From an uncultured Gammaproteobacteria bacterium (GTDB taxonomy: Bacteria; Patescibacteriota; Patescibacteriia; Magasanikbacterales; GCA-002688135), in assembly GCA_964536205.1 (NCBI GenBank), contig CAZHVT010000004.1, forward strand, positions 17,960 to 81,959: DNA of 64,000 nt, read 5' to 3'. The notes under the pieces are model-generated. The model did not search any database. It had not been told where the DNA came from and worked only from the letters and a program-made list of their open reading frames with translations. Position 1 is the first letter of the stretch. Every line of letters begins with the position of its first letter. The position numbers were made by a program, and so were the translations under genes. Positions 6,218 to 57,279 of the stretch are shown here, piece after piece.

Positions 6218-6562
6218 ATGTCTGCAAAAGAGGATAACAAAAAACCGGAAGGCGAGGTTTCAAATCGCATCCGCATCAAAATCAGAGCATTCGATCACAA
6301 AATTGTTGATGAATCAGTTAAGAATATTGTGGAAACTGCAGAGCGATCAGGCGCTAAGGTCGTAGGGCCAGTGCCGTTGCCAACAGAAAAAAGCAAGATG
6401 ACTGTGAATCGTTCAACATTTGTACACAAAGATGCACGAGAACAGTACGAAGTTCGTACGCACAAGCGATTGATGGATATCATCAATCCAACTCCAAAAA
6501 CAGTAGATAACTTGATGAATTTGAATCTACCGGCAGGAGTAAACATCGAAATTAAAATGTGA
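6218..6562 (+). CDS. rpsJ: 30S ribosomal protein S10
   Basis: [40 protein letters not shown]... with a short N-terminal extension. Ends with a TGA stop. Confidence 0.9.
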
Positions 6563-6745
6563 GATATCGCTACACGATATTTCATCACCCGACAGGGTGA
6601 TCTAATAATTAACAATAAGATGGGCGCCGGATCTCAGCAGATACAGTCTTCTGAGATCCGGAACTCATCCGGAAACTGATCCAAGATAAAGGTATAAGAT
6701 CCAACAGAACCTTCTTAATAAAATAATTGTTTGTAGATACAAATT

Positions 6746-6828
6746 CGTTTTGGCTGCAAAGCGCTCAAAGCTCCTCGACGATACTTCGGTATCGCCTCAT
6801 CGCTTATTCACGCTTTTCGCCGAAAACG
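6746..6828 (+). ncRNA. candidate structured RNA element, copy A, in the rpsJ-rplC spacer
   Basis: About 85-nt hairpin. Outer stem CGTTTTGGCTGCAAAGCG / CGCTTTTCGCCGAAAACG encloses the core CTCAAAGCTCCTCGACGATAC-TTCG-GTATCGCCTCATCGCTTATTCACG. Homologous to 14161-14249. Confidence 0.4.
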
Positions 6829-6987
6829 ATATTCATATCTACTAAACACTATTTTATCAAAAAGATTCATGGAAAACATACCCACATCACGGAATCAGAG
6901 GAGTATAAAGAAGATACATGCGGATTCCCGAATGGAATTCGTACACAATTCGACATATTAAGGCATGCATAGCATGTCATGTTGAGT

Positions 6988-7024: not shown

Positions 7025-7843
7025 ATGAAATGTATCATTGGAAGAAAATTGGAAATGACTCGAATTTTTGACGAGCAGGGGACAGCGACTCCCGTGACTG
7101 TTATTGCTGCACCAAAACAAGTGGTTACGCAGGTTCGTGAACGTGCAATTCAAGTGGGGTGTGAATCTGTAAAAAAGAACGTCAAAAAAGCACAACAAGG
7201 TCATTTGAAAGGATTGCCAATGATGAAAGTCATGCGCGATTTCAAAATTACCGACGATCAATTATTTGAGCGTGGTGATTCTTGGGATGCTGGCGTATTT
7301 GAAAAAGGGGATAAGGTAACCGTAACAGGTCATGCAAAAGGACGTGGATTTCAAGGTGTGGTGAAACGATGGGGATTCCATGGTTCACCAGCATCTCACG
7401 GACACAAAGATCAGTTGCGTATGCCTGGTTCAATTGCATCACGAACACAAGGTCCTGTGGCAAAAGGAAAGAAGATGGGTGGTCACATGGGAACAAATCG
7501 TGTGAGTGTTCATAATATTGCAGTCGTAGATATCAATCCTGAAGCTGGATTATTGTACTTGAAGGGAGCAATTCCTGGAGCACGCGGTTCAGTGGTATTG
7601 GTTAAAGGATTGGGTGAAATGGTTGTCGAGAAAACGAAAAAACAAGAAAGCGAAAAAACAGAAGAAACACCAGCAGAACCAAAAGCTGAGGTTGTTGAGG
7701 AAGTAAAAGAAGCGGTTGTAGAAGAGTCAAAAGCTGAAGAGAAAGTAGAATCATCTGAAGAGAAAAAACCAGAAGCAGTTGAAGAAAAACAAGAAGTTGC
7801 AGAAGAACCAAAAGCCGAGGAGGCGGCAGAAGAGACTAAATAA
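7025..7843 (+). CDS. rplC: 50S ribosomal protein L3 with about 75-aa E/K/A/V-rich C-terminal extension
   Basis: Begins MKCIIGRKLEMTRIFDEQG and contains the L3 core. Low-complexity tail EKTKKQESEKTEE...AEETK. The track ORF starts at 6986 but the internal Met matches the L3 N-terminus. Confidence 0.9.
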   Translation: MKCIIGRKLEMTRIFDEQGTATPVTVIAAPKQVVTQVRERAIQVGCESVKKNVKKAQQGHLKGLPMMKVMRDFKITDDQLFERGDSWDAGVFEKGDKVTVTGHAKGRGFQGVVKRWGFHGSPASHGHKDQLRMPGSIASRTQGPVAKGKKMGGHMGTNRVSVHNIAVVDINPEAGLLYLKGAIPGARGSVVLVKGLGEMVVEKTKKQESEKTEETPAEPKAEVVEEVKEAVVEESKAEEKVESSEEKKPEAVEEKQEVAEEPKAEEAAEETK

Positions 7844-7881
7844 AATCATAGAACGTAGAACATAGAACGTACAACATTAAT

Positions 7882-8511
7882 ATGAAAGCACCTCTGTACA
7901 ACATCAAAGGAGAAAAACAGCGGGAAGTCGAACTTCCAGCAGCTGTCTTTGGTGTAGAAACAGAAGCTTCAATTATTCAAGAAGTAGTAGTAGCTTTTGA
8001 GGCAAATCAACGTCAGCAATTCGCACATACAAAAGATCGTGGAGATGTTTCAGGTGGTGGTAAAAAACCATGGAAGCAAAAAGGAACAGGACGTGCGCGT
8101 CATGGATCTATCCGGTCACCTTTGTGGGTTGGTGGTGGTGTGACATTTGGTCCACGCAATAACAGAAATTTCAAAAAGAAAGTAAACAAAAAAGTTGCAC
8201 GAAAAGCACTCAAAATGGTGTTGTCAGATCGTGCATCACATGGAGTCGTATCTTTGATTGATACCTTTGATTTGAAAGAAGGTAAAACAAAAACATGCGC
8301 ACAGCTCGTGAAAGCGGTTGGTGCTGAAAAAGCAAAACGCGTGTTGTTTGTTACAAATGGTGTCAACAAAGATGTGGTTCGATGTGTAAATAATATCCCT
8401 AACGCAGAAGTTACTTCTGTGGCGGACCTTAATGCATACACTGCGATTAAGCATAAAGCATTGGTCATGGAGGAAGGAACAATCGAAGCATTAACCACAC
8501 GATTGAAATAA
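7882..8511 (+). CDS. rplD: 50S ribosomal protein L4
   Basis: 209 aa, canonical S10-operon position. Confidence 0.95.
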   Translation: MKAPLYNIKGEKQREVELPAAVFGVETEASIIQEVVVAFEANQRQQFAHTKDRGDVSGGGKKPWKQKGTGRARHGSIRSPLWVGGGVTFGPRNNRNFKKKVNKKVARKALKMVLSDRASHGVVSLIDTFDLKEGKTKTCAQLVKAVGAEKAKRVLFVTNGVNKDVVRCVNNIPNAEVTSVADLNAYTAIKHKALVMEEGTIEALTTRLK

Positions 8512-9949: not shown

Positions 9950-10234
9950 ATGTCTAGAAGTCTTAAAAAAGGACCATACGTTGACGAGAAACTGATGAAA
10001 AAAATCGGGAAGTTAAAGCAAGGTGATTCTACGGTCGTGAAAACCTGGGCTCGTCATTCAACAATCGCTCCGCAAATGGTGGGATTTACGATTGGTGTAC
10101 ACAATGGAAAGGATCATATTCCTGTGTATGTTGTTGAAAATATGGTTGGACATAAATTAGGTGAATTTGCTCCAACACGTAAATTTGTTCGTCATGGTGG
10201 TAAATTACAAAAGACACAAGAGAAGAAAAAATAG
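9950..10234 (+). CDS. rpsS: 30S ribosomal protein S19
   Basis: 94 aa, [12 protein letters not shown]... Confidence 0.95.
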
Positions 10235-10237
10235 AAT

Positions 10238-10705
10238 ATGGATATTAAAGCACACGCAAAATTTGTTCGAATCTCACCACGCAAAGTTCGCTTGGTAACA
10301 GGTTTAGTGAAAGGCATGACAGTGCCGCATGCGTTGGTGCAATTAAAAATGACAACAAAACGATCAGCTCCAGTAGTCAAAAAGTTGATCGAATCAGCAA
10401 TGGCAAATGCTCGCCATAATTTCAAGGTAGACCCTGAAGCGCTTGTGATTTCAGAAGCGCTGGTGAACCAAGGGCCGACCATGAAAAGATGGCGACCGCG
10501 TGCCATGGGGCGTGCAGCGAAAATTCGCAAACGCACATCACATATCAGCATCACACTTTCAGATATGAAGGGAGATGCAAAACCAGTTGAAAAAACTGAA
10601 GCGGTAAAGGAAGAAAAACCAAAAGTCGAAGCAAAAAAGGATGCAGCAGAAGCTCCAAAGAAACCAGAAAAGAAGCAGGAAGAGGCAAAGGCCGCAAAAA
10701 AATAA
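10238..10705 (+). CDS. rplV: 50S ribosomal protein L22 with K/E/A-rich C-terminal extension
   Basis: N-terminal 110 aa match L22. The tail is EAVKEEKPKVEAKKDAAEAPKKPEKKQEEAKAAKK. Confidence 0.93.
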   Translation: MDIKAHAKFVRISPRKVRLVTGLVKGMTVPHALVQLKMTTKRSAPVVKKLIESAMANARHNFKVDPEALVISEALVNQGPTMKRWRPRAMGRAAKIRKRTSHISITLSDMKGDAKPVEKTEAVKEEKPKVEAKKDAAEAPKKPEKKQEEAKAAKK

Positions 10706-17732: not shown

Positions 17733-18395
17733 ATGAAAGGACAAGCTATGGAACATGATGAAGGTACGCAAGAAGCTGATGAAGAAGTCAAAGGCTTTGA
17801 TTTCTTGAGCGACATGATCGGACAAGAAGTAATGGAAACCGCGCTAAGAAATGGCCTATCCTTAAGTGATTTTCGTAAACTAGGTGAAGATGCGCTGATG
17901 CAACAAATTGCCCCAACAATCAAAGCATACACAACAGGAGCTGGCGATGCTGATATGGAGAATCAAGTAAAAGCAGAGATAGAAAAAAACATCATCGATT
18001 GCGATGCGAGTCCATTCATTCACGACGGGTGGTCCGTCTATCCTGGAAATCACATCAAGGGTGGTCAACTCGAGTGGGATCCGGGGAAAATCGAGCTCTG
18101 GCTCTCGCAAGAACAGAAAAACAGTTCGATTCCAGGACACGAGCTGCGCAAGCAGCTAGTAGAACAGAAACCACTGAATGCCAACGTGCTGGACTACCTG
18201 CTAGCCAACCCTCACCTCATTCCCGAGAAGTGGAAGGGTCAGTACGTCTTCTTCTGGGGAACCATTTACCGCGGCCGGCGCGGCAACCTGCTTGTCCGTT
18301 GTCTTTGCTGGAGTAGTGATGCCTGGCACGGGCACTATCACTGGCTGGGCAATCGCTGGACCGACGGCCATCCGGCGTTGGTGCTCGCACCGTAA
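17733..18395 (+). CDS. hypothetical protein; the 3' half is GC-rich, unlike flanking DNA
   Basis: RBS AAGAGG sits 8 nt before ATG 17733. Inserted between secY and adk. Composition shifts at about 18040. Confidence 0.45.
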   Translation: MKGQAMEHDEGTQEADEEVKGFDFLSDMIGQEVMETALRNGLSLSDFRKLGEDALMQQIAPTIKAYTTGAGDADMENQVKAEIEKNIIDCDASPFIHDGWSVYPGNHIKGGQLEWDPGKIELWLSQEQKNSSIPGHELRKQLVEQKPLNANVLDYLLANPHLIPEKWKGQYVFFWGTIYRGRRGNLLVRCLCWSSDAWHGHYHWLGNRWTDGHPALVLAP

Positions 18396-28321: not shown

Positions 28322-28786
28322 TTAAATAATCACCTTAACTAAGATCGCCAACAAAAACGCCTGCATCACAAAGCCATGTTTCAAAGACATGTCTTTTTTT
28401 CTGTCAACAAAATAATTATGAAACCAGAAATGCACACGATGAAATGCTTCCAGCCACGGATGTTTATATAACTCACACAATCCAACCAACAAATCGGGGA
28501 GTACAGAACCAACTAATCCCCACGCAACAATAGTAGCATTTACATTTGGAACATAAGCAAAAACCCAAGCGACGAGCATAACAGCAGCAAGTGCATCAAA
28601 ACTTACCTTAGCAAGGGCCTGTTTCATCTTCTTGCCACTTTTATATTCCTTATACAAATGAGCATCGCCATGAGGAATCATGTCGATCAAAAGATGCGAA
28701 ATAAAGCCCAAAACAAAGGCCCAGAAAGCCGTAGGGCTATTTTGAGCTACAACTGCTCCAACTGCGACATGAGTGGCGATTAGCAT
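28322..28786 (-). CDS. membrane-bound metal-dependent hydrolase-like protein (YdjM/DUF457-like)
   Basis: 154 aa with TM segments and HLLIDMIPHGDAH. Confidence 0.45.
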   Translation of the reverse strand: MLIATHVAVGAVVAQNSPTAFWAFVLGFISHLLIDMIPHGDAHLYKEYKSGKKMKQALAKVSFDALAAVMLVAWVFAYVPNVNATIVAWGLVGSVLPDLLVGLCELYKHPWLEAFHRVHFWFHNYFVDRKKDMSLKHGFVMQAFLLAILVKVII

Positions 28787-28961
28787 AAAAGACTAATTTT
28801 ATTGGAATATAGTATAGCAGATTTCCTACAAAAAGTCATTTGTGGATTATGAACGCTAAAAAAGCACATTTTGTTGCATATATTATTACAAAATTAGTAT
28901 CAAATATAATACTAAATTTAGCAAAATAACCAAAAAAAGAAAAGAAAGGGTAAGACTACCA

Positions 28962-28990
28962 TTGACAAAATAACAAAAACATGATAGTAT
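28962..28990 (+). promoter_or_regulatory. strong sigma70-type promoter reading into the GC-rich island
   Basis: TTGACA, 17 nt, TAGTAT, about 60 nt upstream of the first island ORF. Confidence 0.5.
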
Positions 28991-29049
28991 ATGCGCGTAT
29001 TACATGAAGTAGTACGAGAACATTACAAGACGTAGGTTTTGGAGATGAC

Positions 29050-29265
29050 ATGCGGCGAATGTTGCGAAAAATAAAGCGCGTTATCCAGCACTGGCTGGAC
29101 GAGCAACGTGAGGCAATTTTCTTTTTCCGATACCTGTGGGTACGGACGAAAGTGGATTGCAGAATGGGTCTGATCGAGGAGTTTCTCTTCGACCCAAGCG
29201 CGTTGAAACAGCGCTACTTCGAAGAACGAAAGTTCGAGCAATCGCTGGCAGGTCGCTGGCGTTAG
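29050..29265 (+). CDS. hypothetical protein (island gene 1)
   Basis: 71 aa with a GGAG RBS. First ORF after the composition jump. Confidence 0.35.
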   Translation: MRRMLRKIKRVIQHWLDEQREAIFFFRYLWVRTKVDCRMGLIEEFLFDPSALKQRYFEERKFEQSLAGRWR

Positions 29266-29316
29266 CTTTCATATTGAGCCTGTTCCCGGGCTAAAAGAAA
29301 GGGGAGTGGAGCGAGC

Positions 29317-29628
29317 ATGAGTAAGAATTCCGTAGTCGTAGGTGATGGCATCACAGTGACGCGCGCGCAGTTGAAGCGCGCGCAGAAGCAGTATGCCAGA
29401 CGCAAAGGTGGCTTGCCGGGTTTCTGGCAGACAGCACTGGACCTCATGGGTCCGGAGCCGGAGCGGGTCAAGAAGACTCGTTCTGCCAAGCCGCGTCGGA
29501 AGCCGGTTGATACTGGTTTCTCGGAGGGTTACCTCGCTCAGCACAAGGCCGAGATCGGCCTGTCGAGTAAGGATCGGCGCCGCGAGCGTCGGGCCGCATC
29601 GAAGCGGTCTCGTCATCGTGACGAATAA
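29317..29628 (+). CDS. hypothetical highly basic protein (island gene 2)
   Basis: 103 aa. RBS GGGGAGTGGAG. K/R-rich C-terminal half (KKTRSAKPRRKP...RRRERRAASKRSRHRDE). Confidence 0.45.
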   Translation: MSKNSVVVGDGITVTRAQLKRAQKQYARRKGGLPGFWQTALDLMGPEPERVKKTRSAKPRRKPVDTGFSEGYLAQHKAEIGLSSKDRRRERRAASKRSRHRDE

Positions 29629-29800
29629 TCCTCGGCTTCGGCCAACCCCGAATCTACAAACTCTGGACTGTTGTGAAACAGACCACATAACCCGCGAGCA
29701 AGACCAAGGTCAAGTTCGCGGATCTAACTCGGTTGCTCAACAAAGTGTTGAGAGACCGTGAGGATCATTAACCCCATCCCTGGGGCAAAAGAATAAGGGC

Positions 29801-29869
29801 ATGGAGATGCAAATGTTGACGTTTGGCATTATCCAGCTGGCCGTTTTGGTCGGCGCCGTCATCCTGTAA
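29801..29869 (+). CDS. candidate 22-aa hydrophobic peptide (MEMQMLTFGIIQLAVLVGAVIL)
   Basis: Follows leader copy L1 (29757 CGTGAGGAT...AAAAGAATAAGGGC). Followed by hairpin 29893-29922. Confidence 0.3.
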   Translation: MEMQMLTFGIIQLAVLVGAVIL

Positions 29870-30002
29870 GGGTGGCTGGCGGGGGTGTCGCGGTTTACGA
29901 ACCTAGCGACACCTCTCCAACTTGAAAGCTTAATCATTCGATTCAGCTTTCGTGAGGAGACACACTCAAAGACCTTTGAAAAACACATAGTCAGGAGAGG
30001 TA

Positions 30003-30257
30003 ATGAACCCGGAATTGATGAATTTGTTGGTCGTACTGACCATGTGCTGGTTCTGCCTCGGCGCGATTGCTCACATGGTGGGTGGTCAAAAGTGGGCGAA
30101 CAAAGTCTGGAGATGGCCGTTCAAGATGATCGGAAAAGCCATCCGTTGGGTGTTGGTCCAGATTCGAGCTTTCATTCGTGAGGCTCTGGTCGGACTCTGG
30201 AATGCACTGCGAGGACGCAGAGGTAACCAAAACAACAACCGCGGCAACAACCCATGA
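30003..30257 (+). CDS. hypothetical 84-aa membrane protein: one TM helix, then an amphipathic basic helix and an RG/N-rich tail
   Basis: RBS AGGAGAGG. Leader CGTGAGGAG at 29951. Paired hairpins downstream at 30283-30355. Confidence 0.45.
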   Translation: MNPELMNLLVVLTMCWFCLGAIAHMVGGQKWANKVWRWPFKMIGKAIRWVLVQIRAFIREALVGLWNALRGRRGNQNNNRGNNP

Positions 30258-30383
30258 CTCAACCCTAACCCGCGAGCAGCATATGCGTCGCGGCAAGCCC
30301 TGTACCCAACGTGGTACAGGGATCCAAATCGATTTCGCAGTCCTGAATTGCGAAGTCACGAGGATTCATTCACAGGAGGAGAG

Positions 30384-30572
30384 ATGGAGAGTTTTCTGGG
30401 CAATGTCTGGGCGCTAGTCTGCCTTTGGGCTGGTCTGTGCATCTTCTATGCCATGATCAGCGCAGTCGTGATGTTCAAATACTCGGCGTGGGACATGTTC
30501 TTGCTGCCATTCAAGGCGATCATCATGCTGTGCAAAGGTCTCGGGAAACTCGTTCCCAGGACGTTCACCTAA
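30384..30572 (+). CDS. hypothetical 62-aa two-TM peptide
   Basis: RBS AGGAGGAGAG sits directly before ATG 30384. The upstream in-frame Met in the track lacks an RBS. Confidence 0.45.
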   Translation: MESFLGNVWALVCLWAGLCIFYAMISAVVMFKYSAWDMFLLPFKAIIMLCKGLGKLVPRTFT

Positions 30573-30617
30573 GAAGGGTGAGATCAAGAGTCAGGTGAAA
30601 ACACAATAAAAGGAGAA

Positions 30618-30683
30618 ATGATGGGAATCGAACTCATTCTGGGTCAGGCGCTTGTCTGCATCATGTACGCAGCTTTCCGCTAG
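30618..30683 (+). CDS. candidate 21-aa hydrophobic peptide (MMGIELILGQALVCIMYAAFR)
   Basis: RBS AAAAGGAGAA. Followed immediately by paired-hairpin module T1. Confidence 0.3.
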   Translation: MMGIELILGQALVCIMYAAFR

Positions 30684-30697
30684 GAGAGGTGTGTATC

Positions 30698-30750
30698 CGA
30701 GGATCTACGGATCCTCACAACGCAGCCGCGAACCAACATGGTTCGCGGCT
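30698..30750 (+). repeat. paired-hairpin module T1 (GAGGATC-tacg-GATCCTC, then CCGCGAACC-aacat-GGTTCGCGG)
   Basis: Two adjacent perfect stems. About 85% identical to T2 at 30966-31014. Confidence 0.6.
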
Positions 30751-30846
30751 CCAACTCGATCTCTGAGCACAGTATTCGTTCAGACTCGTGAGGAGATCTA
30801 CTGGTTACACCTAACCCCGGGTGGAAAGAAATGGGGAGGAGAGAGA

Positions 30847-30948
30847 ATGGACTGGCCAGGGATTCATCGAGACATGACGATTACAGCGATTTCGCTGGTA
30901 ACAATCATCTTTCTGTTCTGGGCATGCAGCGGCTCAAGCCTCTGCTAG
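30847..30948 (+). CDS. candidate 33-aa hydrophobic peptide (MDWPGIHRDMTITAISLVTIIFLFWACSGSSLC)
   Basis: Leader L2 (30787 CGTGAGGAG...ACCCCGGGTGGAAAGAAATGGGG), RBS GGAGGAGAGAG, followed by module T2. Confidence 0.35.
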   Translation: MDWPGIHRDMTITAISLVTIIFLFWACSGSSLC

Positions 30949-30965
30949 AAATTAACAACACATAT

Positions 30966-31014
30966 CGAGGGTCTACGGATCCTCGCGCAGTCCCGAACCA
31001 ACGCGGTTCGGGGC
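30966..31014 (+). repeat. paired-hairpin module T2
   Basis: GAGGGTC-tacg-GATCCTC, then CCCGAACC-aacgc-GGTTCGGGG. Confidence 0.6.
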
Positions 31015-31109
31015 TCCAAATCGGAAAGATTAATGAAAATTAAGCATCCGTGAGGAGTTACAAATAAAAGCCCTGACCCGGGGTAAAAGAAATGGGTTTT
31101 AGGAGGCAC

Positions 31110-31490
31110 ATGATCTTTTGGATCAGTCGTCACGAGCTGTCCCCGGCGCAGACCAAGGCTATCTTGGATCTGCACGGAGACGTTGAGGTAAAGCGACAGG
31201 AAGTCGTTTTCGATGAGGTGGGTGGTTTGAAATCGCTCATCGAGTCGGTAGATGAAGGAGACTTCGTCTACGCCGTGGCCGGTGCGCCGCACTACTTGGC
31301 AGCCGCTTTGAGTGGTTGTGAGTTCGGTGTTTTTCTCAATCACCCGGGTCGGCGTGCCAATGGCACGTTCGGTCTTCATTGCGTATTTCACGTGGTCGGT
31401 GGAGAGCTGGTAAAGGTCTGGGAAAACCCAGATCCGAACAGCGATGAGGGAGAGCGTCTCGATGTCACAGTCGAGCGTCCCATTCTTTAA
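31110..31490 (+). CDS. hypothetical 126-aa soluble protein (last island gene)
   Basis: Leader L3 (31049 CGTGAGGAG...GACCCGGGGTAAAAGAAATGGG), RBS AGGAGG. The ATG inside AAAGAAATGGG (31092) is in frame and is an alternative start. Confidence 0.45.
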   Translation: MIFWISRHELSPAQTKAILDLHGDVEVKRQEVVFDEVGGLKSLIESVDEGDFVYAVAGAPHYLAAALSGCEFGVFLNHPGRRANGTFGLHCVFHVVGGELVKVWENPDPNSDEGERLDVTVERPIL

Positions 31491-31568
31491 ACCAGAGGGC
31501 GTGCTATGGCACGTCACTCCAACTAAAATTTCAATGTATTGAAGTTTTTGAGGAGAAATGGGAAGAGC

Positions 31569-31596
31569 AAAAAACCGGCATTGTGCCGGTTTTTTG
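31569..31596. terminator. bidirectional terminator between the island and tRNA
   Basis: AAAAACCGGCA-ttgt-GCCGGTTTTTT. Confidence 0.6.
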
Positions 31597-31616
31597 TTTG
31601 CAGAAAAGCTTCTGAC

Positions 31617-31690
31617 TACCAGGGGGGAGAATTGAACTCCCGACCTCAGGCTTATGAGTCCTGCGCTCTAACCTTCTGAGCTACCCTGGT
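31617..31690 (-). tRNA. tRNA with anticodon CAU (elongator Met or Ile2-type)
   Basis: Minus-strand cloverleaf ACCAGGG-TA-GCTCAGAAGGTTAGAGC-G-CAGGA-CTCATAA-GCCTG-AGGTC-GGGAG-TTCAATT-CTCCC-CCCTGGT-A. CCA not encoded. Confidence 0.75.
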
Positions 31691-31746
31691 AGTCAATAGC
31701 TTTATGATTGCTAACGGCGATAGTATAAGAGAAATTGAAATGATCG

Positions 31747-32697
31747 TCAATGTAATGTCATGAGGACAATTTCAGGAGGATTAAACAGGCGTGCGCGAGG
31801 TCCAGATTCTCCTAAACCAGCCGTTACATACAATGTTGTCTCTCCAAATTTAGATGCACCTTTAAATGTATCTCTTGGTAGCTGTGTAGGGCCTGGTTTA
31901 GCAAGTGGACCAATTCCAGGCAAGCGAATCTGCCCGCCGTGCGTATGTCCAGAAACTACCATATCAACTTTGTCTTGCGCATCCAAAATTAAATCCGGAT
32001 TATGACTGATTACAATTGTACGTGCAGATCGATCAGGCAACTCTATCGAATCAAAATCATCAGCCTCACTCCAGATATCTTGTGCACCAACAATATACAA
32101 AGGATCCTCATCAAAAAACTTTGCAACAGCGTCCTCTAATCCTAGTATTCCTAAATCTTGCAAAACCGTTCGCACGTCGTCTGCCTCTTCATAATCCGGA
32201 ATATGTTTTCCGGGAATACCAACTCGAAAAGCATGATTTCCCAAAACAGCAACGGTCGGCGCAATCAAAGGCAATTCACCATACGGCTCAAAATGATAAC
32301 GCGCTTCATTCGCATGATCTCCCAAGAAATAATCACCAGCCATTAAAATTAAATCTGGCTCAATCTCTGCAATCTTGTTCACGACACGAGTAGAAAAATC
32401 TCTTTTCTTGTATGGACCAACATGAATATCAGAAATCAACACAACTTTCTTTGGGGACTTCAGAGCCTTTTCAGCAGGGAAGGAATAATCATATTCACGC
32501 ACAACCAACATCCGAGATTCAATAAAACTACCATAAATTAAAATCAATCCTGGAATCAACACAATCACAGCGAGCAGCCAGCACGGATACGGTTTTTTCG
32601 ACTTACAAGAATGATGATGCAAAAAATATCCTGTCAGCCAAAAGGACAGGACAATACCTCCGAGAATAAAAAAGTCGAAAAAGAGTACTTGAAACAT
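31747..32697 (-). CDS. membrane-anchored calcineurin-like metallophosphoesterase
   Basis: N-terminal TM helices, then the motifs LISDIHVG, MAGDYF, GNHA and GHTHGGQ. Confidence 0.8.
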   Translation of the reverse strand: MFQVLFFDFFILGGIVLSFWLTGYFLHHHSCKSKKPYPCWLLAVIVLIPGLILIYGSFIESRMLVVREYDYSFPAEKALKSPKKVVLISDIHVGPYKKRDFSTRVVNKIAEIEPDLILMAGDYFLGDHANEARYHFEPYGELPLIAPTVAVLGNHAFRVGIPGKHIPDYEEADDVRTVLQDLGILGLEDAVAKFFDEDPLYIVGAQDIWSEADDFDSIELPDRSARTIVISHNPDLILDAQDKVDMVVSGHTHGGQIRLPGIGPLAKPGPTQLPRDTFKGASKFGETTLYVTAGLGESGPRARLFNPPEIVLMTLH

Positions 32698-32989: not shown

Positions 32990-33178
32990 CTACAGACTTA
33001 CAGTTTGATCAGATGGGCGAGCTATACCTATCTTCCCTCGTTGAATACGACTCATTTCGTCACTCAATCCAGATAGGCATATCTCATCCCATCTGATACA
33101 AGCTGTATCTCGTTTGTGAGCGTCGAAACTATTCCCACCAATCTGTTACGCGCATAAGTATAACTTGAGCGGTAATTA

Positions 33179-33208
33179 TTGTCAATAAAGTTGGGTTTCG
33201 TGTATAAT
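33179..33208 (+). promoter_or_regulatory. sigma70-type promoter for parA
   Basis: TTGTCA, 18 nt, TATAAT, ending 12 nt before the parA start. Confidence 0.45.
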
Positions 33209-33219
33209 GAAGTCAAGGT

Positions 33220-33990
33220 ATGTCACGAATCATTTCTGTCGTCAATCAGAAGGGGGGCGTTGGTAAGACAACAACATCCATTAATGTGGGTGCGTTTTTG
33301 GCAAACATGGGGAAATCTGTGTTATTGGTGGATTTGGATCCGCAGGCTAATGCAAGCGCAGGGCTTGGTATCAATCACAAAGAATTGGAGTTGGGTATTT
33401 ATCATTGTTTGATTGGTGAGGCTCGGATGCCGGAAATTATCAGAAATACATCTATCCAGGGATATCGCGTGGCACCATCTACACCAGATTTGGCAGGAGC
33501 TTCGGTAGAATTAGTAAATGCAGATCGTCGAGAATATCGTCTGGCCGATGCAATTGATGAGGTGAAACATGGATATGATTATATTATTATCGATTGTCCG
33601 CCGTCACTTGGATTGCTTACCATCAACGGCTTGATTGCGTCAGATGAGGTTTTAATTCCAGTACAAGCAGAATATTATGCGTTGGAAGGGTTGGGGCAAC
33701 TCATGAATACCATCAAACTTGTTAAAGAACACATCAAGCCAGAATTAAAGATTTTAGGCACAGCCCTCACTATGTTTGATAAACGAAATAAATTATCCAC
33801 AGAGGTGATGCATGAATTATATAAATTTTTCCCAGACAAAATTTTCAGATCGGTTATTCCAAGAACTGTCCGTCTCGCCGAAGCTCCAAGTTTCGGACAA
33901 TCAATTTTGGAATACGACCCGCGGTCAAAAGCGTCAAACGCATATCAACGCCTAGCAAAAGAAATCGTAGAAACCCAAAGGTGGGAATAA
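33220..33990 (+). CDS. parA: chromosome partitioning ATPase ParA/Soj
   Basis: Deviant Walker A KGGVGKTT. 256 aa. Confidence 0.9.
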   Translation: MSRIISVVNQKGGVGKTTTSINVGAFLANMGKSVLLVDLDPQANASAGLGINHKELELGIYHCLIGEARMPEIIRNTSIQGYRVAPSTPDLAGASVELVNADRREYRLADAIDEVKHGYDYIIIDCPPSLGLLTINGLIASDEVLIPVQAEYYALEGLGQLMNTIKLVKEHIKPELKILGTALTMFDKRNKLSTEVMHELYKFFPDKIFRSVIPRTVRLAEAPSFGQSILEYDPRSKASNAYQRLAKEIVETQRWE

Positions 33991-34139
33991 CCGCAAAGCG
34001 GAATGACCAAAAAACAAATAACAATGTTCAAACAAATCTCAAGCTCCAAAAAACGATATGTGTAATTTGAACATTAGAATTTGAATATTGTTTATTATTT
34101 GGAATTTGGTACTTGTAATTTATTGACAACGTCAATTAT

Positions 34140-35009
34140 ATGGCATTAGGAAAAGGATTGAACGCACTTATTGGATCAAAGACATCCGGAAGCAAAAAGG
34201 CTTCAAAAAAACCGACGACCAAGGTTGAAGAAAAACAGTCGGTACAAGAGGGGAGTCTTATGATTCCTGTCTCGCAGATTCATGCAAACCCAGATCAGCC
34301 GCGTAAACAGTTCGGCATAGATGAATTACAAGATTTAGTACAATCAATTGAAAAGCATGGAATTTTGCAACCGCTTGTTGTGAAAGAGGAAGAGGATGGG
34401 ATGTATCAAATTATCGCAGGAGAGAGACGTTTTCGTGCATCACAGATGATCGGTATGACACGAGTGCCATGTACAGTAAAACCGGTTGATAAAAAACAGG
34501 AGCTAGAAATTTCTCTCGTTGAGAACATTCAGAGAAAAAATTTGAATCCACTTGAAGAAGCTTTTGCATATCAACGATTAACAGACGAATTTGGAATGAC
34601 GCAGGCAGAGGTTGGATCGCAGGTTGGTAAAAGTAGATCGTATGTTGCAAATACAATTCGATTGTTAGATTTGCCACAGGATGTTCAAAAAGGATTGAGT
34701 GAAGGAAAAATTTCACATACAAAGGCGCGCGCATTGTTAGGCTTGCCAACTATCAGACAACAACTAAAAGCGTTCTACGATATTGCAGGGGATAAGCAAA
34801 TTTCAACACGCGCAACAGAACAGATGGTACGAAAGCATCGAACAAAACTGGGGCGACGAGATCCATTACTAAACGCACTTGAAGAACGTCTCCGTGAAAA
34901 ATTGGGCACGAAAGTGTATGTGACAAATACAAAAGGAAAGGGAAGTGTGAAGATTGATTTCTTTTCAGATGAGGAGATGAATGGGGTTGTGCAGAAGATT
35001 TTGGGGTAG
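34140..35009 (+). CDS. parB: chromosome partitioning protein ParB/Spo0J
   Basis: ParB box GILQPLVV...IIAGERRFRAS, HTH, C-terminal dimerisation region. Confidence 0.9.
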   Translation: MALGKGLNALIGSKTSGSKKASKKPTTKVEEKQSVQEGSLMIPVSQIHANPDQPRKQFGIDELQDLVQSIEKHGILQPLVVKEEEDGMYQIIAGERRFRASQMIGMTRVPCTVKPVDKKQELEISLVENIQRKNLNPLEEAFAYQRLTDEFGMTQAEVGSQVGKSRSYVANTIRLLDLPQDVQKGLSEGKISHTKARALLGLPTIRQQLKAFYDIAGDKQISTRATEQMVRKHRTKLGRRDPLLNALEERLREKLGTKVYVTNTKGKGSVKIDFFSDEEMNGVVQKILG

Positions 35010-35027
35010 GTTGAGATTGAAATTCAA

Positions 35028-35050
35028 AGAGCGGTTAAGCCGCTTTTTTG
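35028..35050 (+). terminator. terminator after parB
   Basis: AGCGG-ttaa-GCCGCT-TTTTTG. Confidence 0.5.
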
Positions 35051-35193
35051 GTTTGCGATGTGCCTCGCCTCTTCAGCCAGGTACATGCGTAGTTTCTAAA
35101 AAAGCGTGTAGCACGTCATTCAAGCTTTCTACATAAGCCTGCTGGGCTTTGATGCATTGTAAACGATCACGAAATCGAAGATTTCTGTCGTTA

Positions 35194-35249
35194 ACAAAAA
35201 AAGACTTCGATATATTCCTCAACCGTAGTTGATAAAAATATCGAAGTCT
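35194..35249 (-). terminator. terminator for the GC-rich minus-strand gene
   Basis: AGACTTCGATAT...ATATCGAAGTCT 12-bp stem, followed on the minus strand by T7. Confidence 0.5.
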
Positions 35250-35260
35250 GGGGGGGTGGA

Positions 35261-36883
35261 CTAGCGACTACCCAATCCGGAAAGGAATGAGCTGTGTGGC
35301 ACAGGGCCATCCGGTCGCGGCGGGTTCATGACATCGTCACAGCGCTTCAGGCTGTGGCGAAACATCTTTGTGGAGCATGCAACACCAGCGCATACGCCAT
35401 CAGCGATGCATTCGGGAGCCATTCGTCGGCTGTCGAATGCGATCAGAACCAGGTCCTTCAGCTCCTCCCACGGAATCGTGGTTGGCTTGATGTTCAATGC
35501 AGAGCGCGTACCGTTGGCAAGCAGTGGTATGCGCGCATCGTAGAACCAGTTTTCAGCACCCGGAATCTGACCTTCAGCAATCAGCTGATGCTTGTTGTAG
35601 CCGTAGAGAGTCGTCGTTCCATGTCGACGTTCAGCCATGCGGATCATCCGCGTAAGCTGATCGAGATAGGTTTTACGATTCGTATCGCTGTTGATCCGGC
35701 CGACGTTGAGCTTCTTGAGAACGCGGAAATTCGTCAAAATCACGACATGACCAGTCTCCGGATTTCGGATGACAATGATCGCAGCTTGATCGAACTTCCT
35801 TGCGCATCGGTCGAGACCGAACGTTGTCGTTTCGAGAAATACGATCTTCATGGTCTTGCGACCTACAGGAATGTCGACGAGTTCTTTGTTCGCGTCATAC
35901 TCAGCGCGGCCAACCGTGAAGAAGTGCTGTTGCTCAACATGCTTCATGATGACGAGCATCTGCATCTGAACAGGTCGATCGGTACGCCACAAATCACTAT
36001 GCTCCGACAGACTGCCAGGTTCGGCAAACATCAGTCGGGGAAACATCGCGAACTCGTAAAGCTCGATCTTGTTCTCTCGGACTCTCTGCTCGAGATGCCG
36101 ACAGTACGTGAGCAGCTGCTCCATGGCCGGATTGCTTTTGCAATCCAACTCTTGCGCCAGCGCATCGGGAGTTGCAGAGTAGAACGTCTGACCTTCCTCT
36201 CCGAACTGCTCCTTCATGAACTGCATCACCACCTCATATACAGAAGTGGGGTGAGCAAGGTCTGCTGGGGCAACATGTGCCGGCCAACGCATGCGTCCGA
36301 TCACGAGCTTCTCGAGGAAGTCATAGATCGGGTCATCAGGCGTATTGATGTTCTGCATCATCCGCACGAGCTGTGAAAGCTCGAGTGGTCCGCAGTACAT
36401 GCGCTTGTGGCGTGCATCTTCTTCGTCGACGTACTCCACAAAATCCTCGAGCTGCGCAGGAAGATTATCGCCAAGCGCATCGGCAATCAGCCGAATGCTA
36501 GAGGTGTTGACCTCACGTCCGAGTTCCGGATCCGGATGCTCGTCGAATCGACCACCACCAGTACCCACGAACAGAATCCCGCAATGTTCCTCGAGCTCAT
36601 CGGCAGTCAAATTGCAGATCCGAATATCATCGAATTTCGGATACACACCCAGGTCATTGCGCCCGGCGTCCGCATCTTTCCAGTCGCAGTAACCCTGCTC
36701 CTCGAGCAGATCTCGAATCTCCGGATTGTCCCAACTCAATGTGCCAGTAGCATCAATGAGATGATGAGGAGTGGTAAGATCCACACCCATGCTTTCGCCA
36801 AAGTGACGAAGCAAGATCAGAGCACAAAGCTCATCCAGATGTGGCTGTCGATGCATCACAATTACTCGTTTATCATTTTTCAA
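35261..36883 (-). CDS. GC-rich 540-aa protein; N-terminal motifs resemble MYG1/UPF0160 metal-dependent hydrolases (tentative)
   Basis: VIVMHRQPHLDELCALILL and ILFVGTGGGRFDEH resemble the H-x-x-H-x-DE...VGG...DHH signature. About 58% GC against an AT-rich genome. Long antisense ORFs are composition artefacts. Confidence 0.4.
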   Translation of the reverse strand: MKNDKRVIVMHRQPHLDELCALILLRHFGESMGVDLTTPHHLIDATGTLSWDNPEIRDLLEEQGYCDWKDADAGRNDLGVYPKFDDIRICNLTADELEEHCGILFVGTGGGRFDEHPDPELGREVNTSSIRLIADALGDNLPAQLEDFVEYVDEEDARHKRMYCGPLELSQLVRMMQNINTPDDPIYDFLEKLVIGRMRWPAHVAPADLAHPTSVYEVVMQFMKEQFGEEGQTFYSATPDALAQELDCKSNPAMEQLLTYCRHLEQRVRENKIELYEFAMFPRLMFAEPGSLSEHSDLWRTDRPVQMQMLVIMKHVEQQHFFTVGRAEYDANKELVDIPVGRKTMKIVFLETTTFGLDRCARKFDQAAIIVIRNPETGHVVILTNFRVLKKLNVGRINSDTNRKTYLDQLTRMIRMAERRHGTTTLYGYNKHQLIAEGQIPGAENWFYDARIPLLANGTRSALNIKPTTIPWEELKDLVLIAFDSRRMAPECIADGVCAGVACSTKMFRHSLKRCDDVMNPPRPDGPVPHSSFLSGLGSR

Positions 36884-36937
36884 TGAAACCTCCTATGAAA
36901 TTTAGTTTACTTTTTGTTTTGATGAAAGATCGTTCGA

Positions 36938-36956
36938 AGATGACACAATGTCATCT
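36938..36956. promoter_or_regulatory. perfect palindrome AGATGACA-caa-TGTCATCT about 55 nt upstream of the 35261..36883 gene; candidate operator
   Basis: 8-bp inverted repeat in the AT-rich upstream region of a GC-rich gene. Confidence 0.35.
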
Positions 36957-37124
36957 CCACACAACTATCCTCAAAAACAAATCTGATATAACATTATTTT
37001 ACACTAAATTAACCAAAAATAATACCACAAAAACAGCCTTTTGTCAACCCCTACGAACATCTTGTTGCTCTACTAAAATAAGTGGTATTTATGGCATTTT
37101 ATGGGTAAGTGAGAGGTATCGAGA

Positions 37125-43212: not shown

Positions 43213-43482
43213 ATGGAAGTCATTTCGATCACTTCACCCCCGATCGATCGTAACAAACAAATTCAATTCTGTCTGAAGTGCAGCATCATCATTCACGAGC
43301 CGATTGATGAATTCAGCGTGTGTAACCACAATTCCAGTATTACCCTGGAGTTGACCGGTTTCGATCACGGAACTGGTGTCGAATGCATGGAGCGCGACTG
43401 CGCTTTCAATGGGATTGGACGATCGCCAAGCGAGCTGTCCAGAATGTTGATTGGACACGCCGAGCGTCACAAAAAGAGTTGA
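43213..43482 (+). CDS. hypothetical Cys-rich small protein
   Basis: RBS AAAGGAGG 5 nt before ATG 43213. Followed by terminator 43488-43517. Slightly GC-richer than flanks. Confidence 0.35.
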   Translation: MEVISITSPPIDRNKQIQFCLKCSIIIHEPIDEFSVCNHNSSITLELTGFDHGTGVECMERDCAFNGIGRSPSELSRMLIGHAERHKKS

Positions 43483-43487
43483 ACGCA

Positions 43488-43517
43488 GCCCTGAACCTAT
43501 GTGGTTCGGGGCTTTTT
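43488..43517 (+). terminator. terminator of the same hairpin family as the island modules
   Basis: GCCCTGAACC-tatgt-GGTTCGGGGC-TTTTT. Compare CCCGAACC-aacgc-GGTTCGGGG at 30992. Confidence 0.55.
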
Positions 43518-56724: not shown

Positions 56725-57279
56725 ATGATCGACAAAAAAAGGTTGAGTTTGGCCAAGGGTGAGAAGCTGTTGAGCTGGACGAAAAAGAGTTCAAGTGCTT
56801 TCTTCGTCGAAATGTTCGTTCTTAGTGTGGTCACTATCACTGCGGTGTCCGTAGGGATTTGGGCGATCAGTAGTGCGCCTGGTTGGGTCATGGAATCCAA
56901 GGGTAGGATGCTGAGGACCTTTGAGGTCGTATTTATGTGGCTGGTTTGGTGGGTGGCTGTCCTGATATCGCTGTGGTGTATCGCAGAGACAATCATTGAA
57001 TACACATTCTATCACTACGCAGTCACAACTCGTCGTGTGGTCAAATACTGGGGATGGATTGGTCGCTACGAAGAAGAAACGTTCTTGCACAAGGTCGAAT
57101 CAATCGACACAAAGCAGGGGATTATCGCTCGGATATTCGGCTACGGAAGCGTGAAGGTGTGCGGAACGGGTGGAGCAAAATTCTGGGTATGCGACATTCC
57201 AAACCACAGACATCACGCAAAAAAAATGACGGGCGCGATCCGTCACCTGCAAAAAGCAGGAAAAGCCAACAAGGCTTAG
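56725..57279 (+). CDS. membrane protein with bacterial PH (bPH_2/YdbT-like) domain
   Basis: Two TM helices followed by a ...YHYAVTTRRVVKYWGWIGRYEEETFLHKVESIDTKQGIIARIFGYGSVKV pattern. Confidence 0.5.
   Translation: MIDKKRLSLAKGEKLLSWTKKSSSAFFVEMFVLSVVTITAVSVGIWAISSAPGWVMESKGRMLRTFEVVFMWLVWWVAVLISLWCIAETIIEYTFYHYAVTTRRVVKYWGWIGRYEEETFLHKVESIDTKQGIIARIFGYGSVKVCGTGGAKFWVCDIPNHRHHAKKMTGAIRHLQKAGKANKA

Follow-up and report, generated by a model that had tools for sequence, protein, structure and literature searches.

The stretch of DNA analysed here (the window, 64,000 nucleotides) contains at positions 29040-31600 a GC-rich island encoding eight small proteins, namely ORFs A to F and two hydrophobic micropeptides, all of them led by SD sequences. 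The genes are arranged as six modules, and each module is closed by a copy of a structured element, here called M1, which always lies 3' of its gene unit, the last unit included, and never between the promoter and the first gene. One plus-strand promoter and one terminator are present, which is consistent with a single transcription unit at 28962-31596. The features of the locus are listed below.

28962..28990, plus strand: sigma-70 promoter of host type, TTGACA-17-TAGTAT with an extended TG upstream, 10/12 consensus matches
29050..29265, plus strand: ORF A, 71 aa, variable module, 36% identity to an ORF of L004
29274..29316, plus strand: leader motif 2, CCCRGG-N-AAAAGAAA-GGGG, preceding the SD of ORF B
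29317..29628, plus strand: ORF B, 103 aa, basic, core gene, with a conserved arginine-rich C-terminal tail (RRRERR)
29665..29684, plus strand: accessory hairpin preceding M1 copy 1, with GNRA (GUGA) tetraloop
29691..29768, plus strand: M1 copy 1, covariance model (CM) scores 46.3 bits (R1) and 60.3 bits (R2)
29801..29869, plus strand: mini1, 22-aa hydrophobic peptide (MEMQMLTFGIIQLAVLVGAVIL), conserved in L008 and L084
29882..29962, plus strand: M1 copy 2, CM 32.3 bits
30003..30257, plus strand: ORF C, 84 aa, core small membrane protein (CWFCLG...WPFKMIG), dN/dS 0.11
30297..30368, plus strand: M1 copy 3, with P2a helix AUCC/GGAU and an extra hairpin before it at 30270-30293
30384..30572, plus strand: ORF D, 62 aa, small membrane protein
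30618..30683, plus strand: mini2, 21-aa hydrophobic peptide, with an L008 counterpart at the same position
30698..30716, plus strand: accessory hairpin with UNCG (UACG) tetraloop; second copy at 30966-30984; kept in L008 and L004
30725..30798, plus strand: M1 copy 4, CM 69.7 bits
30847..30948, plus strand: ORF E, 33 aa, membrane peptide, variable slot
30990..31060, plus strand: M1 copy 5, CM 75.6 bits
31110..31490, plus strand: ORF F, 126 aa, Rossmann-like alpha/beta protein, dN/dS 0.13
31497..31558, plus strand: M1 copy 6, degenerate, between the last gene and the terminator
31568..31596, bidirectional: intrinsic terminator, a perfect 13-bp hairpin with T/A runs on both sides, closing the unit
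31616-31691 (31617-31690 by Rfam), minus strand: tRNA-Met(CAU)

The promoter is the sole strong plus-strand promoter match, and it also precedes the island in the relatives L008, L004, L015 and L083; the host-style consensus promoter that a sequence-only reading of this DNA had described as firing into the island is thus a conserved feature. The same promoter scan found no antisense promoters inside the island. The bidirectional terminator and the minus-strand tRNA(CAU) reported in that reading at the end of the island are both present, and just before the terminator lies GGGAAGAGCAAAAAACC, which is kept in L004, L008 and L015.

The jump in base composition is real, and its extent is smaller than the 60-65% GC over 2.5 kb that had been read from the sequence: the island has a mean GC content of 52.5%, compared with 41.4% for the window outside its two islands, and a value of 0.60 is reached only in 300-nt windows at about 29400-29700, with the peak near 60% inside ORF B. 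GC content rises from 0.32-0.41 at 28650-29100 to 0.45-0.60 over 28950-31650 and is back at about 0.44 by 31500-31800, and the island is the stretch of highest GC among all 2561-nt windows of the 64 kb (mean 0.421, sd 0.024). The shift is located at synonymous sites: seven host genes in the flanks have GC3 values of 0.27-0.43, and ORFs A, B, C, D and F have 0.59-0.75. As had been noted, every credible gene is short and lies on the plus strand. The contrast drawn between strong island and weak host ribosome-binding sites is borne out: 9/9 genes of the two GC-rich islands have SD matches of 4 nt or longer, for the most part AGGAG or AGGAGG, as against 7/40 host genes, and only two of these 40 have a GGAG/GAGG core. 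A second island with a like signature lies at 35261-36883.

M1 is 60-80 nt long and is composed of two hairpins, P1 being directly followed by P2, in which a CUCC/GGAG helix of 4-5 bp and a variable upper stem (P2b) enclose a purine-rich internal loop that is conserved (5'-AAM.../...YGA-3'). The six copies in the window have consistent MFE folds (z -3.5 to -6.4), and two covariance models, R1 and R2, detect 25 copies on the plus strand, which are spread over six lineages and confined to such islands. With filters off, the six full copies of the window all lie within 29691-31558, and none lies in the remaining 61 kb; other matches in the 64-kb window are palindromic stems of P1 on the reverse strand, two weak matches at chance level and, at 43488, the hairpin of a terminator, which matches P1 only. 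In an alignment of 16 copies, which was fitted to the M1 model and with which the independent MFE folds agree, 93% of the cells are paired and 19 of the 24 pairs have compensatory changes; none of 500 shuffles attained the observed values, and slid controls were 25-50% paired. Since 27 G-U pairs occur versus 7 A-C pairs, M1 folds best as the plus strand. In Rfam only tRNAs pass the gathering threshold, and in 28800-31750 nothing relevant turns up at E<=5; M1 lacks a U-tract and any known RNase signature. M1 is a previously undescribed and well-supported new RNA structure family. Extragenic palindromes of the REP/BIME type were considered and rejected, because the M1 copies are clustered and not dispersed through intergenic regions.

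Other RNA features accompany M1. Leader motif 2 recurs at 29768-29800, 30805-30846 and 31068-31109, and its sequence is conserved in an alignment of 13 copies; a hairpin or pseudoknot proposed for it was rejected, as covariation gives no support. The GNRA hairpin is kept in L008, L004 (two copies) and L084. Compared with codon-shuffled versions, the coding RNA of ORF B has a more stable fold (z=-3.1), and no conserved consensus structure was found to match the excess folding in the coding RNAs of ORF B and ORF F.

No PHROG, PADLOC or Pfam match was obtained for the window genes, and no function is assignable to any island protein. ORF B falls into 5 clusters among 5.8 billion proteins (dN/dS 0.31); it is seen only in M1-carrying genomes, and every locus extending past the gene has M1. 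Homologues of ORF C are present in L008, L004 and L015, and ORF D looks like a paralogue of ORF C by a PFK motif that is common to L008 b59 and L015 c55, the link to ORF D having been made by eye. The region of ORF A is missing from L008, although L008 is closer to the window than L004, which has it. In the slot of ORF E, L008 carries a predicted lipoprotein of 301 aa instead of the 33-aa peptide, and the similarity between the two loci stops right after GAGGAG and resumes at the next accessory hairpin. L008 has in addition an extra micropeptide, and L004 has several further modules. M1 copies show reassortment of P1 and P2b types, and the modules differ between relatives with breakpoints at M1. 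This varying modular gene content agrees with the early suggestion of a "different kind of mobile cassette".

Homologous GC-rich islands are found in L008, L004, L015, L083 and L084. In L008, L004 and L015, whose flanks are covered, the site is the same: an island of 50-64% GC comes directly after the same 154-aa gene and promoter. The flanks of L008 have 81% nucleotide identity to the window and those of L004 about 70%, and the metallophosphoesterase of L015 has 52% amino acid identity. All sampled members of the clade carry the island. Only the distant L016 is without it, while keeping the ScpB-DacC-161aa...metallophosphoesterase synteny, so at some time the island was acquired or put together. 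In the comparison of the window with the L008/L009 genome, dS is 0.78-1.36 (about 1) for the island and 0.58-2.7 for the flanks, values that are near saturation, and island dN/dS is 0.10-0.32. Purifying selection is found on the four larger testable genes, which are ORFs B, C and F and the neighboring 540-aa gene.

The sequence-only reading had taken the locus to be horizontally acquired DNA at a tRNA, and a genomic island acquired recently at the 3' end of tRNA-Met, or what is left of an integrative element that entered there, would indeed explain the atypical composition and SD usage, the contact of island and tRNA in the window, L008 and L004, and the absence of the island from the distant syntenic L016. 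Such recent insertion is highly improbable, because relatives share the island, its dS is similar to that of the flanks, and in L015 it adjoins the 154-aa gene and promoter while tRNA-Met lies three host genes away; the promoter and this gene, rather than the tRNA, are the anchor. ORF F and M1 have no matches in viral contigs. Likewise, no recombinase or integrase domain was found by domain search among the unannotated ORFs of the 64-kb window, the remaining genes being judged housekeeping by eye from their translations. In agreement with the first reading, no att duplication was detected either: the repeat of the tRNA 3' end is limited to the 8-mer GACTACCA at 28954-28961 and 31614-31621, and it is a chance match, since it is missing at the equivalent positions in L008 and L004. 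The locus therefore resembles tRNA-linked genomic islands in its atypical composition, accessory genes and adjacent tRNA in three genomes, and differs from them in that an integrase and an att repeat are lacking, the tRNA adjacency is not conserved, and the island is old and vertical. Judged from these sequence comparisons, the island is old and vertically inherited and is not a fresh insertion at the tRNA, whose adjacency is incidental. What stands of the earlier interpretation is the foreign-looking signature, that is, high GC3 and strong SD sites in an SD-poor genome; recent acquisition at the tRNA does not. The same segment at the same place in relatives, with host-like codon usage, had been named as evidence against horizontal acquisition: the place is shared, but the codon usage is non-host. 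A GC-rich, tRNA-adjacent island can thus be an old locus with a maintained odd composition, and this calls for caution in composition-based calls of horizontal transfer.

Taken together, the best explanation overall is probably an old modular operon, transcribed as a single unit and kept at one site, with M1 between its modules. The unit would have been acquired or assembled in the ancestor of a small marine Parcubacteria clade, and since then it would have been inherited at the same site beside the divergent 154-aa gene. M1 would probably serve as punctuation between the cistrons of a polycistronic mRNA, acting as a 3'-end stabilizer and/or as the site of an endonuclease or RNA-binding protein, and the best candidate for a protein binding it is the co-distributed, arginine-rich ORF B. 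The repeated M1 copies could also provide homology for duplication, loss and swapping of modules. The link between ORF B and M1 may reflect shared ancestry only, because their co-occurrence is seen in a handful of related genomes.

This proposal has parallels in known systems. In the early and late operons of phage T7, RNase III sites are intercistronic processing hairpins; M1 is like them in being an irregular hairpin with an internal loop repeated between the short genes of one long transcript, and, by analogy, a cut at an M1 located 3' of each cistron would leave a protective 3' hairpin. Unlike T7 sites, M1 has two hairpins and no sequence similarity to them, and its AAM/YGA loop is without a described counterpart. 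As in the N-boxB/nut system of lambda and in HIV Rev-RRE, a small basic arginine-rich protein is encoded early in the operon, and the structured site repeated downstream with its purine-rich loop may be compared with N/nut, Rev/RRE and the dual-hairpin sites of eut ANTAR regulation. It differs from all three in that no terminators follow the M1 sites and in that the binding is putative only; homology of ORF B to N, Rev or ANTAR proteins was not detected.

A cassette array of the CALIN type, in which M1 would be an attC-like folded single-stranded DNA site and cassettes would be moved by a recombinase encoded elsewhere, would share with the modular operon the co-oriented, promoterless short genes behind one upstream promoter, the structured repeat ending every unit including the last, the lack of a nearby integrase, and the varying content with breakpoints at the repeat and reassorted P1 and P2b types. 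The helix, internal loop and variable stem-loop of P2 also recall the R box, unpaired spacer, and L box plus variable loop of attC, and YCCAAC in M1 is a sequence that we take to resemble the RYYYAAC of the R'' box. This account is nevertheless unlikely. AAC in M1 faces YGA (3' strand YGAGGAG), where GTT would be needed for a complementary R''/R' 7-mer, and unlike CALIN sites M1 is without RYYYAAC/GTTRRRY complementary boxes and has P1 as an extra adjoining hairpin. The P2b stems are mostly regular, without the extrahelical bases of attC; tetraloops of RNA type are present; M1 folds best on the plus strand, whereas attC recombines via the bottom strand; no tyrosine recombinase was found in the 64 kb by the domain search of unannotated ORFs and the inspection of the other genes by eye; and the shared modules have diverged together with the flanks. 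We consider it quite unlikely, too, that the locus is a phage, satellite or toxin module that has been domesticated or is in decay (lysis/holin-like, or tandem peptides of the type I toxin kind). The many hydrophobic peptides of 21-84 aa, the basic protein, the strong SD sites, and the pairing of SD-like GAGGAG with CUCC in M1 suit it, as does an AT-rich phage contig (L088) where similar small membrane genes are spaced by repeated hairpins; on the other hand, the window genes match none of the phage, defense and domain collections named above, antisense promoters and sRNA genes were not found, no viral contigs with ORF F or M1 were seen, the genes are under long-term purifying selection, and M1 follows genes and does not lead them. 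In the toxin version, structured leaders would sequester SD-like GGAG.

Self-cleaving ribozymes occur clustered between small genes of unknown function, and the strongly conserved structure and invariant internal loop of M1 would be expected of a catalytic or ligand-sensing RNA that recurs between genes, be it a riboswitch or a self-cleaving ribozyme of a new kind. M1 has few conserved nucleotides, however, and no Rfam ribozyme or riboswitch matches it at E<=5; the loop of P1 ranges in length from 3 to 17 nt and therefore cannot form a pseudoknot, and downstream of the last copy, which precedes the terminator, there is no gene left to regulate. A catalytic or sensing role is accordingly very doubtful. 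A more far-reaching reading is unlikely as a whole: the island would be the largest cluster of a distinct accessory gene class in SD-poor Parcubacteria, GC3-rich and strongly SD-led, and a self-contained system would control the expression of this class post-transcriptionally. In such a system ORF B would recognize M1 as N does nut or Rev does RRE, and the genes would be translated SD-dependently in a genome whose housekeeping genes skip the SD; or else M1 would be the site of a new, integrase-independent mechanism of cassette shuffling.

Under the favored account of an old modular operon, high GC3 and strong SD sites are probably actively maintained traits of this gene class and not signs of unameliorated foreign DNA. 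Alternatively, the composition may persist because homologous recombination with a GC-rich gene pool now and then replaces the island as a whole, which is conceivable with dS near saturation. The anti-SD motif has been detected in 48% of the 16S genes of Parcubacteria (PMC9297842), and Bacteroidia are SD-poor, yet their rpsU retains a strong SD (PMC7797042, PMC13000453). The window is like such SD-poor lineages with few SD-led genes, the host housekeeping genes being mostly without SD and a small class having strong conserved SD sites; unlike the case of rpsU in Bacteroidia, the SD-led genes here are GC3-rich accessory ORFans and not a ribosomal protein gene. One genome is thus split into AT-rich, SD-less housekeeping genes and GC3-rich, SD-led ORFans including the ORF F family. 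Since published data suggest that many Parcubacteria are without the anti-SD, this split makes the choice of mRNAs for translation directly testable. The new RNA family goes together with a modular small-protein array, and the uncultured bacterial group in which it lies has hardly been studied.

The ORF F family extends to many CPR-like metagenome contigs, where its genes are almost always GC-richer than their genomes. The L004 island has a cassette protein of 136 aa with a match at E of about 1e-8 to models of Csx20, a small CRISPR-associated Rossmann-like protein; its score is below the NCBIfam cut-off. No CRISPR-Cas genes occur near the island. ORF F itself is likewise small and Rossmann-like, sharing the xRH..Q and GAP..L..L motifs, and its match to Csx20 is weak (hhalign E=0.14, one family member E=0.017). 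In unrelated CPR contigs, an M1-like element of 29.9 bits and comparable double hairpins lie 3' of ORF F homologues.

The island is a clade-conserved modular operon of small proteins that carries a new, well-supported family of RNA structure. The GC jump at its edge is real: in 300-nt sliding windows, GC changes from 0.32-0.41 just upstream to 0.45-0.60 over 28950-31650 and to about 0.44 after it, and the mean over 29040-31600 is 52.5%, against 41.4% for the window minus its two GC-rich patches (the island and 35261-36883). The island is the 2.5-kb stretch of highest GC within the 64 kb, and the 60-65% claimed by the sequence-only reading is confined to some hundreds of bases within ORF B. The excess is located at synonymous sites, with GC3 of 0.59-0.75 in ORFs A, B, C, D and F versus 0.27-0.43 in seven neighbouring host genes.

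The signals proposed around the island have been confirmed, namely a near-consensus promoter with an extended -10 (28962-28990), a bidirectional terminator consisting of a perfect 13-bp hairpin (31568-31596) and a minus-strand tRNA-Met(CAU) gene (31616-31691). The contrast in ribosome-binding sites was also correctly described: a Shine-Dalgarno (SD) match of 4-7 nt precedes each of the nine genes in the two GC-rich patches, whereas a match of at least 4 nt is found in 7 of 40 host genes and a GGAG/GAGG core in two of the 40. As had been stated, no recombinase was found in the window, by domain scans of the unannotated ORFs and by eye in the translations of the other genes, and there is no att duplication; the sole att-like repeat is a chance 8-mer not kept in relatives, and the search for a tRNA-derived att repeat gave nothing beyond it. 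The window is chromosomal (S10-spc ribosomal protein cluster, SecY, aminoacyl-tRNA synthetases, ScpAB, ParAB, RelA, TopA, DprA, RNase Y and IF-2), and among named genomes the closest is a marine MAG labelled 'Parcubacteria group bacterium'. Cumulative GC skew flips sign near ParAB and the second GC-rich patch (window about 33000-37000, profile peak at about 35-36 kb), a hint that an origin or terminus of replication lies near both patches.

One promoter and one terminator enclose all island genes, and by these sequence signals the island reads as a single transcription unit. Its plus-strand genes are listed in operon order.

Small-protein genes of the island
ORF A, 71 aa, first in the operon
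ORF B, 103 aa, after ORF A; basic, with a conserved RRRERR tail
mini1, 22 aa, after ORF B; hydrophobic peptide
ORF C, 84 aa, after mini1; membrane protein
ORF D, 62 aa, after ORF C; membrane protein, followed by mini2 (21 aa)
ORF E, 33 aa, after mini2; membrane protein
ORF F, 126 aa, last gene

Searches of Pfam, PHROGs, PADLOC, NCBIfam and PDB sequences gave no assignment for any window gene of the island. A [WF]PFK[ML][IM] motif, recognized by eye, is common to ORF C, ORF D and the small membrane ORFs of two relatives (contigs L008 and L015), and these genes look like paralogues by this shared motif; in BLAST among them, only the two L015 ORFs match one another, weakly. A giant non-coding RNA or rRNA fragment, an idea prompted by the high GC and the absence of long ORFs, was rejected, since there is no Rfam match and the small ORFs show conservation (dN/dS 0.1-0.3).

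Relatives were recovered by exact-protein and homologue look-ups, in which the window's own genome appears as L001 and L002. The reading as a recent insertion at the tRNA proved largely wrong, and the segment departs from every defining feature of a recently acquired genomic island at tRNA-Met: relatives hold a GC-rich segment at one promoter-anchored site. In L008/L014 (81% nucleotide identity to the window in the flanks), L004-L007 (about 70%) and L015 (52% amino acid identity in the metallophosphoesterase), a segment of 50-64% GC lies directly downstream of the divergent 154-aa host gene and a TTGACA-17-TAGTAT promoter, and these lineages share with the window the terminator motif that closes it. 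Short contigs L083 and L084 have a matching operon start in two further lineages. The L015 island measures just 1.1 kb or so, with three genes (ORF B, one for a small membrane protein, and ORF C), and an inositol-phosphate-synthase-like gene and two other host genes stand between it and tRNA-Met, so that the conserved anchor is the promoter, not the tRNA. In L016 (Kuenenbacteria), the ScpB-DacC-161aa...metallophosphoesterase neighbourhood is retained, and a glycosyltransferase gene and another gene, both of host GC, occupy the place where the island and the 154-aa gene would be; the island is thus an acquisition or invention at the level of the clade.

Between the window and the L008/L009 genome, dS is 0.78-1.36 for island genes and 0.58-2.7 for the flanks, and island-gene dN/dS is 0.10-0.32; the matching dS and the low dN/dS indicate that the small ORFs are real genes that have diverged along with the chromosome. 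High GC3 and SD sites are retained in every lineage. Since about one or more substitutions per synonymous site should erase an unselected foreign composition, we infer that the island composition is maintained, be it by selection, biased conversion or repeated homologous replacement. Two local features of relatives were registered: five tandem copies of a unit of about 36 nt (GGATTCCCGCCTGCGCGGGAATGAC...) between the 154-aa gene and the island promoter of L015 (about 7700-7900), and an Avd-like gene of the bAvd/23S_rRNA_IVP family that separates the metallophosphoesterase gene from ParA in L008 (11933-12292) and L009 (2003-2368) and is missing from the window. Avd is an accessory protein of diversity-generating retroelements.

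Six intergenic stretches of the island share one architecture, the M1 element. Its first hairpin, P1, is GC-rich (7-13 bp, loop of 3-17 nt) and is directly followed by a second hairpin with a basal helix of 4-5 bp (CUCC/GGAG, in some copies AUCC/GGAU), an asymmetric internal loop whose 5' strand has an invariant A-A opposite (Y)G-A in the 3' strand, and beyond it a variable stem-loop of 7-11 bp, P2b. A further, accessory hairpin with a GNRA (GUGA) or UNCG (UACG) tetraloop precedes many copies. A covariance model built from seven copies recovers all remaining ones, on the plus strand only.

M1 copies in the window found by the covariance model
29691-29768, plus strand, M1
29882-29962, plus strand, M1
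30297-30368, plus strand, M1
30725-30798, plus strand, M1
30990-31060, plus strand, M1
31497-31558, plus strand, M1

Eight copies were found in L004, six in L008, two each in L015 and L084, and one in L083; with filters off, the other window matches are reverse-strand P1 palindromes, two weak chance-level matches and a terminator hairpin at 43488 (P1 alone). In an alignment of 16 copies fitted to the covariance model, 93% of cells are standard pairs, against 74% after shuffling and 25-50% with partners slid, and compensatory double changes occur in 19 of 24 pairs, values reached by none of 500 shuffles. Single-sequence minimum free energy folds of 14 copies agree with the structure independently of the model (z -3.5 to -6.4). 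G-U pairs (27) exceed A-C mismatches (7), which marks the transcribed strand as the folding strand; M1 forms its structure in the sense-strand RNA. Nothing similar was found in Rfam. A K-turn was rejected on alignment inspection: the 3' strand of the internal loop fits (NUGA then helix), but the 5' strand is without the required 3-nt bulge and GA.

The placement of M1 is modular. Its copies always stand behind a gene unit, even the final one ahead of the terminator, and never between the promoter and the first gene, so that the window array reads [A+B]-M1-[mini1]-M1-[C]-M1-[D+mini2]-M1-[E]-M1-[F]-M1-terminator; L004 and L008 obey the same rule. The window and L004 have ORF A, and L004 has several additional modules; the closer relative L008 has no ORF A and one extra micropeptide after its first M1. 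The slot of the 33-aa ORF E is filled in L008 by a 301-aa predicted lipoprotein; the two sequences cease to be similar immediately behind GAGGAG and become so again from the next accessory hairpin on. Copies differ in which P1 type is combined with which P2b type. One L004 copy (6230-6385) has an AT-rich insertion of about 160 nt in the P1 loop, containing a promoter-like TTGAAC...TATAT. A cassette of the L004 island (6498-6908) encodes a 136-aa protein matching models of the CRISPR-associated Csx20 (E about 1e-8; score under the NCBIfam cut-off), with no CRISPR-Cas genes found near it; it has motifs in common with ORF F, a statistically weak link.

The unit-plus-site layout and the breakpoints make an integron-like cassette array the most interesting rival. 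It is nevertheless unlikely, because M1 has neither complementary R''/R' boxes nor extrahelical bases and folds on the wrong strand, and no recombinase is within reach. The many hydrophobic peptides would fit an origin in phage, lysis or type I toxin genes, which we consider quite unlikely since databases, promoters and viral contigs lend it no support: ORF F was not found in IMG/VR, the M1 pattern had no matches in the viral-origin search, and a 17-mer of the accessory hairpin had six matches, about the number estimated for chance, none of which matches the M1 model. One of the six is the repeated terminator hairpin that splits an array of small membrane-protein genes in an AT-rich phage contig (L088, IMG/VR contig 3300028591_000244); its sequence is identical to the island's GNRA accessory hairpin (GGGACTGTTGTGAAACAGCCC), a likeness read as convergence because no M1 match exists there. 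That M1 is a ribozyme or riboswitch is very improbable, nothing specific being in its favour.

As a punctuated operon, the island would most likely use M1 as a 3'-flanking element acting on the polycistronic mRNA: each cistron group may end in a stable double hairpin after an endonucleolytic cut, or M1 may simply block exonucleases. RNase III hairpins between the cistrons of phage operons would be a parallel. A recognition site would be provided by the invariant purine-rich loop. The arginine-rich tail of ORF B belongs to a type that binds purine-rich internal loops in RNA; because of this tail, its position as the first conserved gene of the operon and its existence only in genomes with M1, ORF B is the most plausible candidate partner, a link resting on co-occurrence within one clade. 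A metagenome scan with ORF B gave no matches. The repeated copies could also promote module turnover through unequal or homologous recombination.

A second conserved sequence, leader motif 2 (CCCRGG-N-AAAAGAAA-GGGG), immediately precedes the SD of four genes (ORF B, mini1, ORF E and ORF F) and recurs in front of ORF F in a distant CPR contig (L070).

Positions of leader motif 2
29274-29316, window
29768-29800, window
30805-30846, window
31068-31109, window
633-674, L070

Its reading as a preQ1-I-like H-type pseudoknot (hairpin plus A-rich tail) was rejected: the sequence is conserved, but pairing is 72.5% versus 71.4% after shuffling, and covariation gives it no support.

A metagenome scan with ORF F gave 35 loci. 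Covariance model R1 of M1 found no convincing element at these loci, and model R2 found one M1-like match, scoring 29.9 bits, in L047, about 20 nt 3' of the homologue. In L063, L066 and L077, ORF F is followed by pairs of adjoining hairpins whose basal helix is of UUCU/AGAA or AUCC/GGAU type; the two adjoining hairpins of L011 have no such helix. Judged from these elements outside the clade, M1 may originally have been an element 3' of ORF F. In L008, a frameshift splits ORF F (10001-10382; tblastn segments of residues 1-80 and 78-126), which makes it either a pseudogene or an assembly error. The coding RNA is more stable than codon-shuffled versions (z -0.9 to -6.3 among homologues); a conserved structure within it was rejected, since RNAalifold found no consensus among 14 homologues (-11.6 kcal/mol; the covariation term is positive).

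As a rule, ORF F homologues are SD-led, and they lie 5-21 GC points above their own contig in 21 of the 22 contigs examined (L047-L081, other CPR metagenome contigs, with background GC of 29% to 54%), the exception being the most distant one (33% identity). The anti-SD motif has been reported in only 48% of Parcubacteria 16S genes (PMC9297842). Together with the GC-rich, SD-led pattern of ORF F, this figure points to the island as the largest cluster of a distinct class of accessory genes in an SD-poor genome, which may be the most far-reaching aspect of the finding. Host housekeeping genes, including the ribosomal protein operon, are mostly without SD and have A-rich leaders such as AAGAAATAAT before ATG, consistent with reports of many Parcubacteria without the anti-SD motif (PMC9297842). 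Scattered among these AT-rich SD-less genes are more function-unknown genes with GC3 of at least 0.5 (window 293-1285, 17733-18395, 43213-43482 and 56725-57279), and three of the four have an SD of AGGAG-, GAGGTG- or AAGGAGG-type. Behind the gene at 43213-43482, the terminator hairpin (43488-43512) resembles P1 of M1.
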